NCBI GenBank assembly: GCA_963799845.1
Contig: CAWCYI010000004.1
Coordinates: 1,536,001-1,600,000, forward strand
Length of the DNA stretch: 64,000 nt
Direction: 5' to 3'
Source: an uncultured Nitrososphaerota archaeon
GTDB taxonomy: Archaea > Thermoproteota > Nitrososphaeria > Nitrososphaerales > CADDZS01
Shown here: piece after piece, positions 43,833-50,500 of the stretch
Numbering within the stretch: the first letter of the stretch is position 1
Layout of the letters: each line of letters begins with the position of its first letter
The notes under the pieces: model-generated
Databases searched by the model: none
Seen by the model: only the letters and a program-made list of their open reading frames with translations
Told to the model about the DNA's origin: nothing
Program-made: the position numbers and the translations under genes

Positions 43833-44426
43833 GTGTCGAGCCCCACCAAGTATTGCTATAACTGCGGATCGGAGCTGCCTCCGGGCGCGACTTTCTGCCC
43901 CAAATGCGGCACTTCAGTTTATGTTTCACCGCCTCCTTCTGCCAGCACACCCCCTCCATCTACCGGCGCACCGCCCCCGTCCTACTACGACAGCAGAGAT
44001 TACAGGAGGCAACGCAGAAGGCAGGAAAAGCAAGAGAAGCAGGAGAAAAATGAGAAACATGAGAAGGGAGAAAAGGGAGAGAAGGGCGGCGGCGGGATCA
44101 TCGGGGCGATCATTGGCGGAGCTATTCTAATCTGGATCGGCATCACCTTCTATCTGCAGCAGTTTGGATATTTTATCGGCAACTGGTGGGCGTTTTTGAT
44201 CGTCGGCATCGGTCTCATTCTGATCGTTCAGGGCATCCTCCTCTACTCGCGGCACAAGAGAGTAATTATCGGACCCCTCATCGGCGGTGGCATCCTATTC
44301 CTGGTCGGGTTGAGTTTCCTTTACAATTTTCTGGGATTCATCTGGCCGCTGATTCTCGTTGTTGTTGGTTTGGCCATCTTAGCCTCCGCGCTAACCGCCA
44401 GGAGACGAACGCCAAACCCGGTCTAG
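43833..44426 (+). CDS. Zinc-ribbon membrane protein
   Basis: CYNCG..FCPKCG, Pro-rich and EK-rich linker, 4 TM. Confidence 0.8.
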   Translation: MSSPTKYCYNCGSELPPGATFCPKCGTSVYVSPPPSASTPPPSTGAPPPSYYDSRDYRRQRRRQEKQEKQEKNEKHEKGEKGEKGGGGIIGAIIGGAILIWIGITFYLQQFGYFIGNWWAFLIVGIGLILIVQGILLYSRHKRVIIGPLIGGGILFLVGLSFLYNFLGFIWPLILVVVGLAILASALTARRRTPNPV

Positions 44427-45566
44427 CGCCTTCCCGTGAACGCGTTGTAAAGAGAATGCTCCAGTACGGTTTGAAATTTGTCCCTGCCGAACACGCGAAA
44501 GTAGCCTCTTCCGAGTGATTCGACGAGGTCTCCGATTTCATACCGGGGGAAGAGAACGGACGACACGACGAGCCTCCCCCACTCATTCTTGCGCAATTCG
44601 TGTAGCAGTTTGATCTTGTTTCCCACCCTGACCTCGAACAGGTAGATATCATAATTGGGGCACACGTATGGATTTTCATCCAGCTGCTGCGCAAATACTC
44701 CTTCAGTTGCGGTATACATCTCCACCACCGGGGCGGCTCCGAAAAAATATTTCAACTCGGGGGCATACTTCGTCTGTATCTTCGCAACGCTCGTGCAAAA
44801 CAGCGCATCCATCTTCCACACGTTCTTGGGGAGCACGTGGTATTTTTTCCTGACAAATCGGACAAACTCGAGTAAAACTGGAGTCACTCCCATCACACAA
44901 CCGATGTCCCCGCCGCTTGCCCTCTCGTAGACGAGTTCAAACCTCCTCTCCCAGTCTTTCCTTGTTATCCCCGCGCCCAGCGAGTCGATCTCCTCCTGCC
45001 TCGGGACGAGGTTCGCCGCATCCAGCGACGGATGGAGTCTCGCATACGTGCCGGAACTGTAACCGTACCTTTGCTCACCTGAGGGAGAGGAGATGACGGA
45101 GACGTCTGACGGAAAATTCAGGTTGAGCACGTCCCGCTTGATAATTCGAATGTCGTTTTTGAGGGCAAAATTGACTATCGCCCTAGCTCCAGCGAAAAGT
45201 ATCTGGGAGAGGTGCGTTTCGTTGGTAGGGATGACCTTGGATCGCCCCGTCAGTACCCCGGGTCATCACCCAGGTTGCGACCGGTTCGGGGAACAGGCAT
45301 TCGAATCCTCTCTTCCCGCTCTGGATATCATCAAAGTACGGTTTTAGAGATCCGTAATTTGATACCGGGAACCTTGATTGAAAATCGCTTATCGAGCTGA
45401 CAGATTCCACGCCAAACTTCTTCCCATACTCAGTCTGAGCGTATCTTTCGATCAAGTAGTCAAGTGTATCAGTCTGCGCCTTGCTTGGATCTCGAAGGGA
45501 AGCGTACCACGGGTCAACGAAACTTTTCAGAGCAGATGAAAGCTCCAGAGAGTCCAAATTCAACAC
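44423..45566 (-). CDS. GH3 (auxin-responsive promoter) family acyl-adenylate ligase-like protein, frameshift near 45251
   Basis: TEYGKKFG..FQSRFPVSNY, TRG(TTGRSKVIP), EMYTATEG, PRYEIGDLV. Confidence 0.8.
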
Positions 45567-46110: not shown

Positions 46111-46698
46111 CTACTCTTCCTGAAATTCCTGCTTTTCTTCGAGCTCTAGGTAGAGAGTTTCTTTGTGCATGATATCAATGTGGGCGAGGAGTTCTTTTCT
46201 GGTTCGAAAGTTGGAATTACAGTACGGACACTGGTGTCCCTTCAGCGACTCGACTATCGGAAGCGGGGATGAACGCCTTCTTCTGTTTCCGATGATTTGA
46301 GACTGCGTGAGGGTTCCGACAAAAACACCGTCCTCCATCACCGCTAGTCTCCTCATACCGCGGTTGATCATTATTCGCAACGCGTCTTGGATGTCGGCAT
46401 CAGAGTTGATTTTAACGAGCGGTGAAGACATCACTTCCCTGACCCTAGTTCTTGCGACGTCTCGCCCCGCAGCAAGGACCCTTGCGAGCAGGTCCCACTC
46501 CGTCAAGATGCCGATCGGATCGCCGCCGGTTTCGGCAACAATCACGCTTCCCACCTGCTTGTCACGCATTAATTTTGCCGCATCGCGAACGGCATCGTCC
46601 GCATAAACGATCACCGAAGGCTGGACAAATTTGGAAACCGGAAAACGTTGAGTGGAGACCTTTGTTTTCTTCTTCGGCGATTTGTTTCGGACTACCAA
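46111..46698 (-). CDS. CBS-pair protein with C-terminal C2H2 zinc finger
   Basis: GILTEWDL, VREVMSSP; CPYC...HIDIMH. Confidence 0.85.
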   Translation of the reverse strand: MVVRNKSPKKKTKVSTQRFPVSKFVQPSVIVYADDAVRDAAKLMRDKQVGSVIVAETGGDPIGILTEWDLLARVLAAGRDVARTRVREVMSSPLVKINSDADIQDALRIMINRGMRRLAVMEDGVFVGTLTQSQIIGNRRRRSSPLPIVESLKGHQCPYCNSNFRTRKELLAHIDIMHKETLYLELEEKQEFQEE

Positions 46699-46862: not shown

Positions 46863-49625
46863 CTACGAGACGGGCAGATTACCGGCTTCGAGGAACTTTG
46901 CAGCCTGCTCTTTGAGCTTCCTGATCGCTGCGTCCTTCTCGGGATGTGAAACCAGTGCAATCTTCGCTACGTCCCAGAAATCTCTGGCCGGCACTATCTT
47001 CAGGCCCTGCTTTTCAAAGAACGCCTTGTCTTCGGTGCTCACTCCTGAAAAGTTCGCCTCCGGTATGATTATCGTGTCGACTCCATCGGTGTTTAACGCT
47101 GCGACGAACTTGCCCATCCCCTTAAAGTCGAGACCTCCGACCTGAACGAGCTCGCCCTTTGGAGTCACTCCCCCCGTAATCACTACGTTCGGAAGTACTT
47201 TCTCCTTCGCGGCCACAGAGTACTGAGCAAGGGTGATTGCGGCTCCGGCGCTGGGTCCCTGGATCACCTGCGTGTCGAGACCCTTGGCAAACGTGATAAA
47301 GTCAAGGAAGAACTCGTGGTTTCGCATCGACCAGTCGCACTCCTCGTTCAAGAATACTCTTGCGTGCTCGGCACTCGCCCGGACAGATTTCGCGATTTCG
47401 CTTCCGATGACAAGAGATCTCCCTCTCTTTCCATACGGGTTGCACACGCATTCGATTACCGCGACGGTTCCCTCCGAGGCCATCCCGCCACTCCCGGTGC
47501 TAGCCAGAGCGGCCAGACCGTAGACCTTTCCCACTGCCGGAACCGGGTTTGGACCCCTTAGGGCGGAAGCGATCTTCTGGATCTCCTCGACCGATTCATC
47601 CCTCATTGAGGCGACCGCCGCCTGAAAGTGCGAAATCGTAAGCTTATACGATTCGGGGGTGATATCTTTCAGATTGTCGAAATTCTGCGGGGCAAGGGGT
47701 GACTGCGGCGCGAACCCGAGGTTTGCCCTGACCCTCGTCAAATCATCTTCGTAGATCTTCCGCAGTTTATTGAGCTGAGTTCCATCATCTGAAGGAACGT
47801 GCGAAATCTTGTAAGCCGCATTGAGCTCCTTGAGCCGAAGCTCAATCGCGTCGCTGATCACCCTTTCGATTTTTGCAGGAGTGAATGTCCGCTTTCCAAA
47901 TAGCTCCAGTATTTTTTCCTCGGTAACGGAGGCATCGATGAACGACCTGCACTTGTTGAGGTGCACCTTAATTATCTCGAGTCTTTCGGTATCATTTCGT
48001 GGAGGCGGTACCTCCACGATTCTGTCAAATCGACCCGCGCGGAGAAACGCCTCATCGACGAGCTGCAGCTTGTTCGTGGTTCCTATTACGACGACGCCTT
48101 CGAGGGGTTTCAATCCACCCATCTCGGAGAGGAGGGTTGTCACCGCGCCCAGGCTTCCGCCCAACTCCCTTTTCAGTGTCAGAGCGTCAAGCTCATCGAT
48201 TATGATGATCGACGGCGCGTTCTTTCGCGCTTCATCGAAGATGTCGATGATGATTTTCTCGGTCTGACCATGATACGGCTTTACTATCTGCGCGCCGCGG
48301 ATCATGTACATCGTAGCTTGCAGCTCGCCGCCGATTGCCTGCACCAGCCACGTCTTGCCGGTTCCCGGATGTCCATGGAGAAGCACTCCCCTGATCGGAG
48401 TTGCACCGGCGCGCCTGGACATTTCCGGATTTAGCGAAACTTCGATATCTTTCAGGAGGTTTTCCTTGATTCCAGAAAGACCGCCGACGTCGTCCAGAGT
48501 AATCTTCGGCTTGATGCGCGTGACGATGTGACGCATTTCGTCGCTCCGCTTGTCCTCGTTGTATTCCTTGAGACGGCTTATCTCCCTGAAATCTTCCAGA
48601 GTAACGCTCAGCTTCGGACTCTCATCCTTGCCGAGGGCGCTCGAGAGTTTTTTCAGGTACGAAGACCTGACGAGCTTTGTCTTGTTCTCCATGACGATCT
48701 GGAACGCGTTCGAAATATCGGCGGGGGTGACAGTGCCGTGCCCCAGCGCGCGTACTTTCGCCTCGATTGTTTGCAGCACGCTGTTTGCGTCGAGGTTCAC
48801 CTGATACTTTTCGAGGTTCTTTCTCGTGATCTCTACCAGCGTCGGTCGATCAATTTCCGAATCGAGATCTATCGTCCCGGAACTGCCGCGACGCCTCACT
48901 GCCTCGATGACCGAACCGAATTCATTTGTTGCGAGTATCAATATGCATCTGCGATCCTGGTAGACCATTTCGTTGATCTTCTCCAGCAAGGTAGTTTGAA
49001 CGCCCCTGAACGCCTGAACGCCGCTGTCGGGAGCGCCGGATGAATCTCCCTGTTCCCTTGCGAGAGTCTGGGCTTCGTCTATGAACAGTATTGTGGGACG
49101 TTTGAAAGCTTCGTCAAAAACCTGCGCGATCTTTTTCTCGGACTCGCCGAGCCATTTGTCAAAAATCTTGTGGGGCGAAACGAGCTGCGCGTAGACCGGA
49201 ACTTCCTTTTCGGCTCCCTTGTTGTACGCCTCGACCATAACCGAGTGCACCAGCGAGGTTTTTCCCGTGCCAGAGGATCCTTTAACGATGAACACCTGCG
49301 GCGGTGCCGTGGGGCAGATTTTCCGAAAGCCCTCGTCCCTTACTACCCAGTACTGGGCGGCTGAAAGAATTTCATCTTTGACTTCGTTGTAACCGACATT
49401 ATTTTCGCACAGCTTGGAGAACGGGGCGACGGTCGAGTGCGCGTCTAGCATCTGCTGCCGGAGCATCTTCCTCGAAAGTTTCTTTTTGGACCTCGTGGAT
49501 TCGAGGTACCATTTTCTGTACTCCGAGTCGGACGCCATCAGAAGCGGATGGTACGCTGTCCTGAGTATCCTGGATTTCTTCCACCAGCTGTCGTCTTCCG
49601 AGTCTCTCGATGGTATTACGCTCAT
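46863..49625 (-). CDS. Tandem AAA-AAA ATPase fused to Lon (S16) protease domain
   Basis: AAA1 GSSGTGKT/KWLGESEK/FIDE; AAA2 GHPGTGKT/IIDE/DEAFLRAGRFDR; Lon GPSAG with Lys 43 residues later. Confidence 0.88.
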   Translation of the reverse strand: MSVIPSRDSEDDSWWKKSRILRTAYHPLLMASDSEYRKWYLESTRSKKKLSRKMLRQQMLDAHSTVAPFSKLCENNVGYNEVKDEILSAAQYWVVRDEGFRKICPTAPPQVFIVKGSSGTGKTSLVHSVMVEAYNKGAEKEVPVYAQLVSPHKIFDKWLGESEKKIAQVFDEAFKRPTILFIDEAQTLAREQGDSSGAPDSGVQAFRGVQTTLLEKINEMVYQDRRCILILATNEFGSVIEAVRRRGSSGTIDLDSEIDRPTLVEITRKNLEKYQVNLDANSVLQTIEAKVRALGHGTVTPADISNAFQIVMENKTKLVRSSYLKKLSSALGKDESPKLSVTLEDFREISRLKEYNEDKRSDEMRHIVTRIKPKITLDDVGGLSGIKENLLKDIEVSLNPEMSRRAGATPIRGVLLHGHPGTGKTWLVQAIGGELQATMYMIRGAQIVKPYHGQTEKIIIDIFDEARKNAPSIIIIDELDALTLKRELGGSLGAVTTLLSEMGGLKPLEGVVVIGTTNKLQLVDEAFLRAGRFDRIVEVPPPRNDTERLEIIKVHLNKCRSFIDASVTEEKILELFGKRTFTPAKIERVISDAIELRLKELNAAYKISHVPSDDGTQLNKLRKIYEDDLTRVRANLGFAPQSPLAPQNFDNLKDITPESYKLTISHFQAAVASMRDESVEEIQKIASALRGPNPVPAVGKVYGLAALASTGSGGMASEGTVAVIECVCNPYGKRGRSLVIGSEIAKSVRASAEHARVFLNEECDWSMRNHEFFLDFITFAKGLDTQVIQGPSAGAAITLAQYSVAAKEKVLPNVVITGGVTPKGELVQVGGLDFKGMGKFVAALNTDGVDTIIIPEANFSGVSTEDKAFFEKQGLKIVPARDFWDVAKIALVSHPEKDAAIRKLKEQAAKFLEAGNLPVS

Positions 49626-49642
49626 TTCAAATTCACCAAATG

Positions 49643-50500
49643 CTACGGCTTTTGCCTTCTTGACCTGAACCCGAAGTAGGACTTGATGACTGCAAATCCC
49701 GCAAAATACGACACGATCACTACACCGACGAACAGGATTCCAACTTCAATCATAGCGATTATCGACAAAAAGAACAGCCCTCCGTAGACCAGTTTCTTGC
49801 TAAATTTCATGCCGGCAATCAGCAGCACGACCGAGAACACCGCAAAAATTGCAAGGAAGTCGGTCGCGTTGATTGTGATGCCTCCGAGGCTTATCCCCGT
49901 GAATCCGAAGAGAGGGTTCCAGCCAGAGGCCTCCGATACTGGTTGCGGGAGAACCGTAACTGCAATATCCAAGATCAGATTTCCCGTGCCCGTGACGTTC
50001 TTCATCCAGGAATCTGCAGGCGAGCTCAAAACGTCCATGTCAGCATAGTTCAGAGTCGAGGAAGAAACGTTCACGACCATCGAGTAATTCGCGGTTTGGA
50101 CCGGAGTGAACAGAAGATCGGCCCTAGTGCCCGATTTGTAGAGCCCGAGATCATACTGGCCACCGGTAAGGGAAAGCACACTAACGTTGGACGTCGCGGG
50201 GACTATAATCCTCAATACCTGCGAGGATGTGAGGTTGACGCTAATTACCGGTGATTCAGGCGGCAGGTAAGTACTCGAACTCCCGAATGCAAAATGAGCG
50301 GGCATTGAGGGAAAAACCAGCACTGCCCCAAAAATTAGTATCAGTGATGCAAAATTCCGGTTGTTTTTTGGAAAAATTGCGTTCACAGATGGAGCAGCAG
50401 TCTCACAACTCGCTATATCGAAATATATAGTTACTTCACTTTGAATCCAGATCTCAGCTCCGAATCGTTTCGCTGCCATCTTAATATAATTCAGATCCAA
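49643..50500 (-). CDS. Membrane-anchored exported protein (start uncertain)
   Basis: Signal-like segment, beta-rich domain, C-terminal TMs; 17 nt upstream of the AAA-Lon gene. Confidence 0.65.
   Translation of the reverse strand: MDLNYIKMAAKRFGAEIWIQSEVTIYFDIASCETAAPSVNAIFPKNNRNFASLILIFGAVLVFPSMPAHFAFGSSSTYLPPESPVISVNLTSSQVLRIIVPATSNVSVLSLTGGQYDLGLYKSGTRADLLFTPVQTANYSMVVNVSSSTLNYADMDVLSSPADSWMKNVTGTGNLILDIAVTVLPQPVSEASGWNPLFGFTGISLGGITINATDFLAIFAVFSVVLLIAGMKFSKKLVYGGLFFLSIIAMIEVGILFVGVVIVSYFAGFAVIKSYFGFRSRRQKP

Follow-up and report, generated by a model that had tools for sequence, protein, structure and literature searches.

The 64,000-nt window, a stretch of genomic DNA from an uncultured Nitrososphaerota archaeon, encodes a 920-aa protein (46863..49625, minus strand) in which a helical N-domain, two AAA modules (D1 and D2), and a Lon-type (S16) protease domain follow one another in a single chain, as assigned with Pfam, NCBIfam, and an AlphaFold model. 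Because two motors and a Lon protease are combined in one chain beside a membrane-protein gene, the protein is probably an energy-dependent protease acting at the cell membrane, and probably of a kind so far undescribed. We favor, with fair confidence, a membrane-tethered, self-contained ATP-dependent protease that has an FtsH-like layout but two rings and a Ser–Lys site.

The order of two AAA modules and then a Lon protease domain, proposed in an earlier sequence-only reading, was recovered both by Pfam, which placed AAA in two stretches (E 1e-54) and Lon_C over residues 698–892 (49.7 bits; cut-off, 21.1), and by fold matches of the AlphaFold model (a monomer; mean pLDDT 78). No NCBIfam family was matched above its cut-off. 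The motifs named in that reading were located at residues 157 (KWLGESEK), 378 (DDVGGL), 528 (LRAGRFDR), and 790 (GPSAG, containing Ser792), and its claim that the protein lacks a TM segment agreed with a top 19-residue hydropathy of 0.98. The helical N-domain, delimited by alignment and the model (amino acids about 12–72; 49410..49592, minus strand), carries a conserved Trp/Arg/Leu/Tyr pattern (W15, R22, L29, Y36, and W39). D1, defined by motifs and alignment (about 73–352; 48570..49409, minus strand), contains Walker A K122, the pore loop W158-L-G160, Walker B D183-E184, N234, and a non-canonical second region of homology, R245-R246. D2, for which a fold match was also available (about 364–675; 47601..48536, minus strand), contains Walker A K424, the pore loop Y451-H-G453, Walker B D477-E478, N518, and the Arg finger R532. 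The protease domain (about 697–895; 46941..47537, minus strand) was delimited by Pfam, alignment, and fold match. In the model, residues 697–895 superposed on the Escherichia coli Lon P domain (1rr9; Z 22.2, rmsd 2.2, 176 aligned), and the domain also matched the P domain of BrxL (Z 18.4); residues 363–675 matched the FtsH ATPase (Z 25.8, rmsd 1.9), and residues 64–675 matched NVL, VAT, and p97 (Z 23.5–24, with a high rmsd). The hhalign probability of the protease domain against LonA was 99.75.

The gene is genuine. Some frameshifted genes are present in the source genome, which would suit an assembly artefact in which a Cdc48 gene was joined to a Lon fragment, but 188 distinct sequences, drawn from many assemblies, share the full-length architecture. 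Furthermore, an independent genome carries a colinear 2763-nt orthologue with 96% protein identity, from which the gene differs by mostly silent codon changes (320 silent and 33 replacement), so the misassembly allowed for in the earlier reading is refuted and its probability is close to nil. The protease domain alone had 87 silent and 8 replacement changes, and every domain is under purifying selection.

Residue conservation was scored by alignment in these 188 full-length sequences; an earlier set of 120 had been selected by length and by bit score (at least 60 for proteins or 70 for loci). P0129, P0141, and P0144 fell outside the 120 and were included in the 188, and split or cut-off copies (L026, L075, L007, L028, L029, L032, L034, L068, L070, and L084) were excluded from the motif counts. 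The predicted catalytic Ser792 (codon 47250..47252, minus strand), located by motif and alignment, was Ser in 188/188 sequences, one of which, P0129, lacked both the GP and the Lys. The preceding residue was Pro (P791) in 177/188 and Gly in 10/188. The sequence-only reading had placed the partner Lys at +43, and a Lys (K835) does occur there, but that column was Lys in 46/188 sequences and Arg in 129/188, whereas K839 (Ser+47; codon 47109..47111, minus strand) was conserved in 187/188. Because K839 is almost invariant and aligns with the catalytic Lys of LonA once a four-residue insertion is allowed for, the Lys of the dyad is most likely K839, not K835. Among 46 representatives with <70% identity, S792 was retained in 46 and K839 in 45. 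The spacing among the 120 members was +47 in 111, +48 in four, +49 in four, +44 in one, and +43 in none, whereas it was +43 in 68/68 LonA hits; it is thus unlike that of characterized Lons, and the active-site geometry here is putative.

The ATPase residues were similarly conserved, in D1 (K122, 188/188; E184, 184/188; R246, 185/188) and in D2 (K424, 187/188; D477, E478, N518, and R532, each 188/188), and among the 46 representatives (K122, 46; E184, 43; K424, 46; E478, 46), although D1 was degenerate in a few family members. The intact ATPase and Ser–Lys motifs, the purifying selection, and the lack of a family match above cut-off support the earlier proposal of a distinct architecture for a predicted self-contained ATP-dependent protease. 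It is improbable that motor and peptidase are instead uncoupled, the protein being mainly a membrane-associated unfoldase or extractor, or a LonC-like ATP-independent peptidase, with D1 purely structural. The non-canonical second region of homology in D1, the loss of its Walker B Glu in 4/188 sequences, the lost dyad motif of P0129, and the precedent of LonC, which degrades without ATP hydrolysis according to the available text of PMC9569914, point in that direction, but the invariant D2 motifs and a dyad kept in 187/188 sequences argue against it.

Both AAA stretches match models of the classic clade (CDC48, PAN, and FtsH), and their tandem arrangement with aromatic pore loops resembles that of Cdc48, VAT, and p97, which also provided the best NCBIfam and Foldseek matches. 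The term "Cdc48-like", used in the sequence-only reading, nevertheless holds for the layout only, because the double-psi barrel N-domain of Cdc48/p97 is absent (about 70 residues, helical in the model, precede D1) and neither module nests in the sampled Cdc48 groups. In FastTree phylogenies with 20 sampled Cdc48s, the family D1 (support 1.0) and D2 (0.98) were separate, with unsupported deep branches. The protein scored 214.9 bits against the Cdc48 model TIGR01243 (cut-off, 802.65) and ends in GNLPVS, whereas two of the source genome's own Cdc48s end in YYR; unlike Cdc48, VAT, and p97, it also bears its own protease domain.

That domain counts as an S16 Lon P domain by its fold and its Ser–Lys dyad residues (Pfam, the 1rr9 match, and alignment). 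With LonA (MEROPS S16) it shares the P-domain fold, a GPS motif with Pro before the Ser, and a Ser–Lys dyad and ATPase in one chain, whereas LonA has one HCLR-clade module and a LON N-domain, in contrast to the two classic-clade modules and missing LON N-domain here; the LonA model TIGR00763 matched residues 719–890 only. LonA is defined in the available text of PMC9569914 by a Pro before the catalytic Ser, which the family has, and by a Ser-to-Lys interval of exactly 42 residues, which none of the 120 members has. Archaeal LonB (S16.005) is comparable in its archaeal host, Lon protease domain, and predicted membrane site of action, but has a membrane anchor inside its AAA+ module, whereas the present protein has none, and an Asp rather than a Pro before the catalytic Ser; the LonB model TIGR00764 scored 53.7 bits (cut-off, 516.6), in the P domain only. 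An Asgard LonB origin for the P domain is not favored: an unrooted tree set the family apart from the sampled Asgard GDSA-type Lons (88/82). In FtsH and the m-AAA and i-AAA proteases, too, one chain carries a classic-clade AAA and then a protease, in line with the D2 fold match, and the available text of PMC7226402 places the protease after the last AAA ring in FtsH and Lon. However, FtsH has a zinc M41 peptidase (HExxH), one AAA ring, and an anchor in the same chain, whereas here there are a Ser–Lys peptidase, two AAA rings, and a putative anchor that is usually a separate gene; the FtsH model TIGR01241 matched the AAA part only. LonC and LonBA, described in the available text of PMC9569914 as Lon subfamilies with mixed features, have one AAA+ module each rather than two, and the ATPase residues lost in LonC are kept in the present family.

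The upstream membrane-protein ORF noticed in the sequence-only reading was confirmed: it lies on the same strand (49643..50386, minus), separated by a 17-nt gap that contains a GGTGA motif (49633..49637, minus strand), putatively Shine–Dalgarno-like, 7 nt before the ATG of the protease gene. Its open frame extends to TTG 50500, but homologue L028 and hydropathy indicate GTG 50386 as the likely start, which gives a product of about 247 aa. A TATA-box-like TATATATT (50422..50429, minus strand), recognized from its sequence alone, lies 36 nt upstream of this start. The N-terminal hydrophobic stretch of the partner is signal-like, its ectodomain is a beta-sandwich containing six N-x-S/T sequons, and its C-terminal part comprises TM helices, probably three in number, and a basic tail. 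It had no match in Pfam, NCBIfam, PADLOC, or Atlas, and the matches in a fold search, with a best Z of 7.1, were all to generic beta-sandwiches and helices.

Among 66 family loci, 55 had an adjacent partner gene of one of three types, and in five, all Asgard (L068, L069, L070, L072, and L074), the three-helix type was fused to the protease N-terminus, so that the helical N-domain starts right after the third TM helix and the FtsH order of TM, AAA, and protease is reproduced. The remaining six comprised one with another membrane gene, two without upstream DNA, and three from Micrarchaeota without a partner. In a divergent subfamily, a fourth membrane-protein type lay directly upstream in 3/3 loci examined. 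The fused type is the clade-3 partner, to which the partner type in the window links weakly; profile comparisons gave probabilities of 85 for c7 against c1 (E 6e-6, in the ectodomain only), 34 for c1 against c3, and 2 for c7 against c3. The c1 type apparently has two rather than three C-terminal TM helices and was divergently transcribed in six loci. A complex prediction of amino acids 10–355 (N-domain and D1) with the TM part of the partner scored 0.01, which has no bearing either way.

The conserved adjacency and the N-terminal fusions support the membrane recruitment by the partner that the earlier reading had suggested, and point to a predicted anchor. Alternatively, the neighbor might be a membrane sensor that regulates the protease or is its dedicated substrate, turnover of the sensor relaying an envelope signal, with the protease soluble or membrane-bound through its own amphipathic N-helices (residues 18–28 have a hydrophobic moment of 0.73, against a 95th percentile of 0.57 for the whole protein). 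The Ig-like outer domain with sequons, the high divergence of the partner types, and the partnerless Micrarchaeota members would suit this explanation, which we consider rather unlikely: fusion to the N-terminus of the protease is more in keeping with an anchor than with a substrate, and the ectodomain is missing from the fused and 125-aa partner forms.

By analogy with classic-clade AAA and Lon proteins, the favored membrane-tethered protease would form a hexamer of three stacked rings. The partner would anchor it to the membrane, on the cytoplasmic side, via the helical N-domain, and the D1 pore would therefore face the membrane. The aromatic pore loops of D1 and D2 may then grip the substrate, unfold it, and thread it from D1 to D2, as in p97 and VAT, and the unfolded chain would enter the Lon chamber, where the conserved Ser792 is predicted to cut, with Lys839 as the general base. 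The protease would probably act on membrane and membrane-associated proteins that are damaged or have regulatory functions; degrading such proteins is a role of FtsH in bacteria and of LonB in many archaea. The outer beta-sandwich of the partner, dispensable in some lineages, may serve for sensing or as a spacer.

The family has members in Nitrososphaerales, Bathyarchaeia, Brockarchaeota, Micrarchaeota, and a few Asgard genomes, and was present in 43/401 Thermoproteota and 5/251 Asgard genomes; bacterial clusters of 1140-aa proteins that combine AAA with Lon_C were also observed. This patchy distribution of the family and the varied gene neighborhoods of the loci could indicate a two-gene anti-virus defense system in which a membrane sensor switches on an AAA–Lon effector. 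BrxL and IetAS use AAA and protease parts, and the AAA part matched PADLOC IetA models, alongside the BrxL P-domain match. However, the PADLOC matches were limited to the generic AAA module and scored below housekeeping AAA models, the partners matched no PADLOC model, all genomes of two taxonomic families carry the gene (12/12 and 5/5), and the D1, D2, and P-domain trees give much the same subgroups, all of which makes a defense function very improbable. The 920-aa protein is the sole Lon_C match in its own genome (86.7% complete), which also has separate genes for Cdc48, as well as five for proteasome subunits. Strong LonB-model matches were found in 27/401 genomes, none of them among the 43 family-bearing genomes. 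Mutual exclusion of the family and LonB is thus weakly indicated, the overlap expected by chance being about 3 against 0 observed, with related genomes not independent and three candidates scored per genome. A weak Lon-type match was obtained in one family genome (G128), two others (G455 and G456) carry the family gene plus a 686–687-aa Lon, and most of the 401 lack both the family and LonB. Replacement of PAN was unsupported (PAN in 7/43 family genomes and 97/401 overall).

We found no description of the AAA–AAA–Lon architecture in the mostly open literature, including the available text of PMC6393860, PMC1586193, PMC2605481, PMC7973254, PMC9263693, and PMC10936438, although arCOG or Asgard supplementary tables could list it. 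If a double classic-clade motor does feed a Lon chamber, this pairing of motor and peptidase would be new and would show that modules of both kinds are swappable across AAA+ clades; the natural fused forms supply the anchored machine as one chain. In uncultured archaea where no FtsH and no LonB was found, the family is a candidate agent of membrane-protein quality control. More tentatively, it may constitute a separate AAA+ protease class, a third ATP-dependent protease of archaea, whose double motor extracts membrane proteins for immediate degradation by the same chain, which takes the place of FtsH or LonB in several TACK lineages, and which is tuned to envelope stress by the outer domain of the partner. 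If so, the family would offer a one-chain prokaryotic counterpart to the extraction and degradation of membrane proteins driven by p97.

The ORF at 46863–49625 on the minus strand encodes a protein of 920 amino acids, in which Pfam detected two AAA stretches (modules D1 and D2) followed by Lon_C at residues 698–892. The best NCBIfam models all scored far under cut-off: over the ATPase part these were CDC48, PAN, and FtsH, and over the last 200 residues LonB and Lon. All the motifs named in the sequence-only reading were found in this protein, and the absence of a transmembrane segment was borne out. The AlphaFold model, built with 52 sequences, had a mean pLDDT of 78 and a pTM of 0.44, and its top Foldseek matches were p97/Cdc48. 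In a wider structure search, D2 matched FtsH (Z 25.8). Residues 697–895 matched the protease domain of E. coli Lon (Z 22.2, rmsd 2.2), and the tandem AAA modules matched NVL, VAT, and p97 with Z 23.5–24 and an rmsd of 14–19, so that the model does not resolve the ring packing. Among the structure matches listed, no solved chain spanned D1, D2, and the Lon domain.

AAA-AAA-Lon_C proteins are a real family, whose members carry generic public names ("AAA family ATPase", "hypothetical protein"). The C-terminal third, used as a query, recovered 52 close relatives, mostly of 850–1040 amino acids (one of 710), the set ending where scores fall to those of ordinary LonA. A scan of species genomes found the family at 66 of 80 loci, in records titled Nitrososphaerales, Micrarchaeota, Bathyarchaeia, Brockarchaeota, Marsarchaeota, Methanomethylicota, Nezhaarchaeota, Odinarchaeota, Promethearchaeota, Hodarchaeota, and Heimdallarchaeota. 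The closest named record was a Nitrososphaerales genome (96% protein identity), whose orthologue is colinear with the window gene and differs from it by 320 silent and 33 replacement codon changes; that the architecture is an artefact can be given almost no credence. Within the window's phylum, the family profile matched 43 of 401 genomes at 265 bits or more (frames of 902–960 amino acids) and all remaining matches were below 70 bits, a clear split in score. Only 5 of 251 genomes carried the family in the phylum to which an Odinarchaeota record belongs, and the family is therefore rare in Asgard. In the ESM Atlas, two archaeal clusters with automatic names share the AAA and Lon_C Pfam set, and bacterial clusters of approximately 1140 amino acids (AAA 100%, Lon_C 84%; score of 0.98 against the window protein) are candidates by Pfam content, suggesting that archaea may not be alone in having this design. 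Family members also occurred in two bacteria-labelled records (L079 and P0133; Methylomirabilota and Nealsonbacteria), and misbinning of L079 is possible because its gene pair matches that of Bathyarchaeia loci. At two loci (L026, 3535–6285, and L075, 9998–12746), the family gene lies in two frames, through error or a real split, and the family member P0141 contains an intein with a LAGLIDADG domain within D2, at the sensor-1 position.

Over 188 distinct full-length family sequences, conservation in D1 was 188 for K122, 187 for D183, 184 for E184, 186 for the pore-loop G160, and 185 for R246, and in D2 it was 187 for K424 and 188 each for D477, E478, G453, N518, and R532. The second region of homology of D1 is unusual (AVRRRG) and D1 is damaged in a few members, which suggests that D2 is probably the main motor. 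The predicted Ser–Lys dyad is S792 (188/188) and K839 (187/188); the position at +43 pointed out in the sequence-only reading (K835) is Lys in 46 of the 188 and Arg in 129, which makes K839 the likelier catalytic lysine. A profile alignment with nine LonA proteins inserted four columns after GGL and matched the LonA catalytic Lys to K839. The Ser–Lys spacing was +47 in 111 of 120 family members versus +43 in all 68 LonA matches. A published account puts 42 intervening residues between Ser and Lys in LonA and LonB alike (PMC9569914). The family thus combines a GPS motif of the LonA type with a lengthened loop of its own. One full-length protein with both AAA modules (P0129) has lost the GPS motif and the dyad Lys from its Lon domain, and is likely a pseudo-protease. 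For the family, a motor or peptidase that works uncoupled from the other part is improbable.

A FastTree phylogeny of AAA modules (20 Cdc48s, 7 PANs, 5 FtsHs, 5 CdvC-like proteins, and 32 family members per module) placed family D1 and D2 each in its own group (support of 1.0 and 0.98), with similar subgroups. Neither nested in Cdc48, and the deeper branches were without support; "Cdc48-like" is a fair label for the layout, not for membership. The protease domain, compared with LonA, Thermoproteota Lon-type proteins, stand-alone Lon-like proteins of 300 amino acids, and Asgard GDSA-type Lons, formed one group (support of 96/89 and 88/82). The simplest reading would be that one old fusion gave rise to the family.

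In the window's genome, which is 86.7% complete, neither a second Lon_C match nor a PAN over cut-off was found. It has a CdvC-like ATPase, five proteasome subunit genes, and at least five Cdc48-type genes (four plus one frameshifted); on contig C6, one lies in two frames (L106, 946–3127) and one stops at approximately 644 amino acids (L105, 960–2891). Of the 43 genomes with the family, 7 have PAN. A strong LonB-model match (at least 343 bits, still under cut-off) occurred in 27 of the 401 genomes, none with the family, where about three overlaps would be expected by chance and kin genomes are not independent. A weak match alone occurred in 17 more, one with the family, and two genomes outside the 401 contain both the family and a Lon of 686–687 amino acids, so that mutual exclusion is only hinted at. 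The Thermoproteota Lon-type proteins of approximately 750 amino acids (L108, 1303–3501, and L109, 1334–3634), found in 27 of the 401 genomes, match the LonB model at approximately 350 bits, under cut-off, yet their motif is GPSAG and their Ser–Lys spacing is longer. Stand-alone Lon-like proteins of approximately 300 amino acids (L111, 707–1603; L012, L013, and L016–L019) are common in the phylum and form their own group; L111, the sole one read whole, has a hydrophobic N-terminus.

The window's partner gene ends 17 nt upstream of the protease ATG, with GGTGA inside the gap. Its product has a signal-like stretch and a beta-sandwich that carries six sequons, and hydrophobic helices lie at its C-terminus; no library match was found for it. 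This first partner type was upstream at 8 of the 66 loci, a second at 36, of which 30 are tandem and 6 head-to-head arrangements, and a third at 11 (124–277 amino acids, one called at 408 from an early start). The first and second types have a common ectodomain (probability 85, E 6e-6); the third type is linked to them weakly. At five Asgard loci, the protease itself begins with the three helices of the third type, which make up its first 125 residues; the same fusion occurs in two more database proteins. Among the 66 loci, one in Heimdallarchaeota had another membrane gene instead, no partner gene was found at three in Micrarchaeota, and upstream DNA was absent at two. An ATP-dependent protease for which the neighbour is a regulator or substrate appears rather unlikely, and a defence system quite improbable. 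The next gene downstream in the window (46111–46698, minus strand), encoding a CBS pair and a C-terminal C2H2-type zinc finger, was not a conserved neighbour among the family loci examined. A GH3-family gene (44423–45566, minus strand) has an apparent frameshift near 45230, which divides it into frames of 127 and 235 amino acids and may be a sequencing error. A divergent subfamily, from another family of the same order and with an altered D1, had a 420-amino-acid membrane gene upstream at 3 of 3 loci. Downstream is a BSP-family HExxH domain (PF04450), either as the next gene (L114, 5648–9063) or fused to the C-terminus (L112, 1414–4773; L113, 3657–7145; and P0138), the fusion thus putting two peptidase types on one chain.

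LonA, B, C, and BA each have one ATPase domain according to part of one source (PMC9569914), and in part of another archaea are credited with two ATP-dependent proteases (PMC4343526). The AAA-AAA-Lon_C architecture is missing from the portions consulted of an S16 architecture survey and its table (PMC2605481), and a literature search of article portions found no description of it. The individual parts are all known domains, and machines of this kind are known too; their combination appears to be without description in the literature searched. The analysis directly supports the order and folds of the domains, the conservation of the ATPase and dyad residues, selection, the coupling of the genes, and fusion in some relatives. 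We consider it fairly likely that these proteins are membrane-tethered, self-contained ATP-dependent proteases, in which the 920-amino-acid protein would assemble as a hexamer, the partner would keep the N-domain at the membrane, and substrate would pass from D1 through D2 into the Lon chamber. The fused forms run TM, AAA, AAA, protease, the layout of FtsH but with one more ring and a different peptidase.
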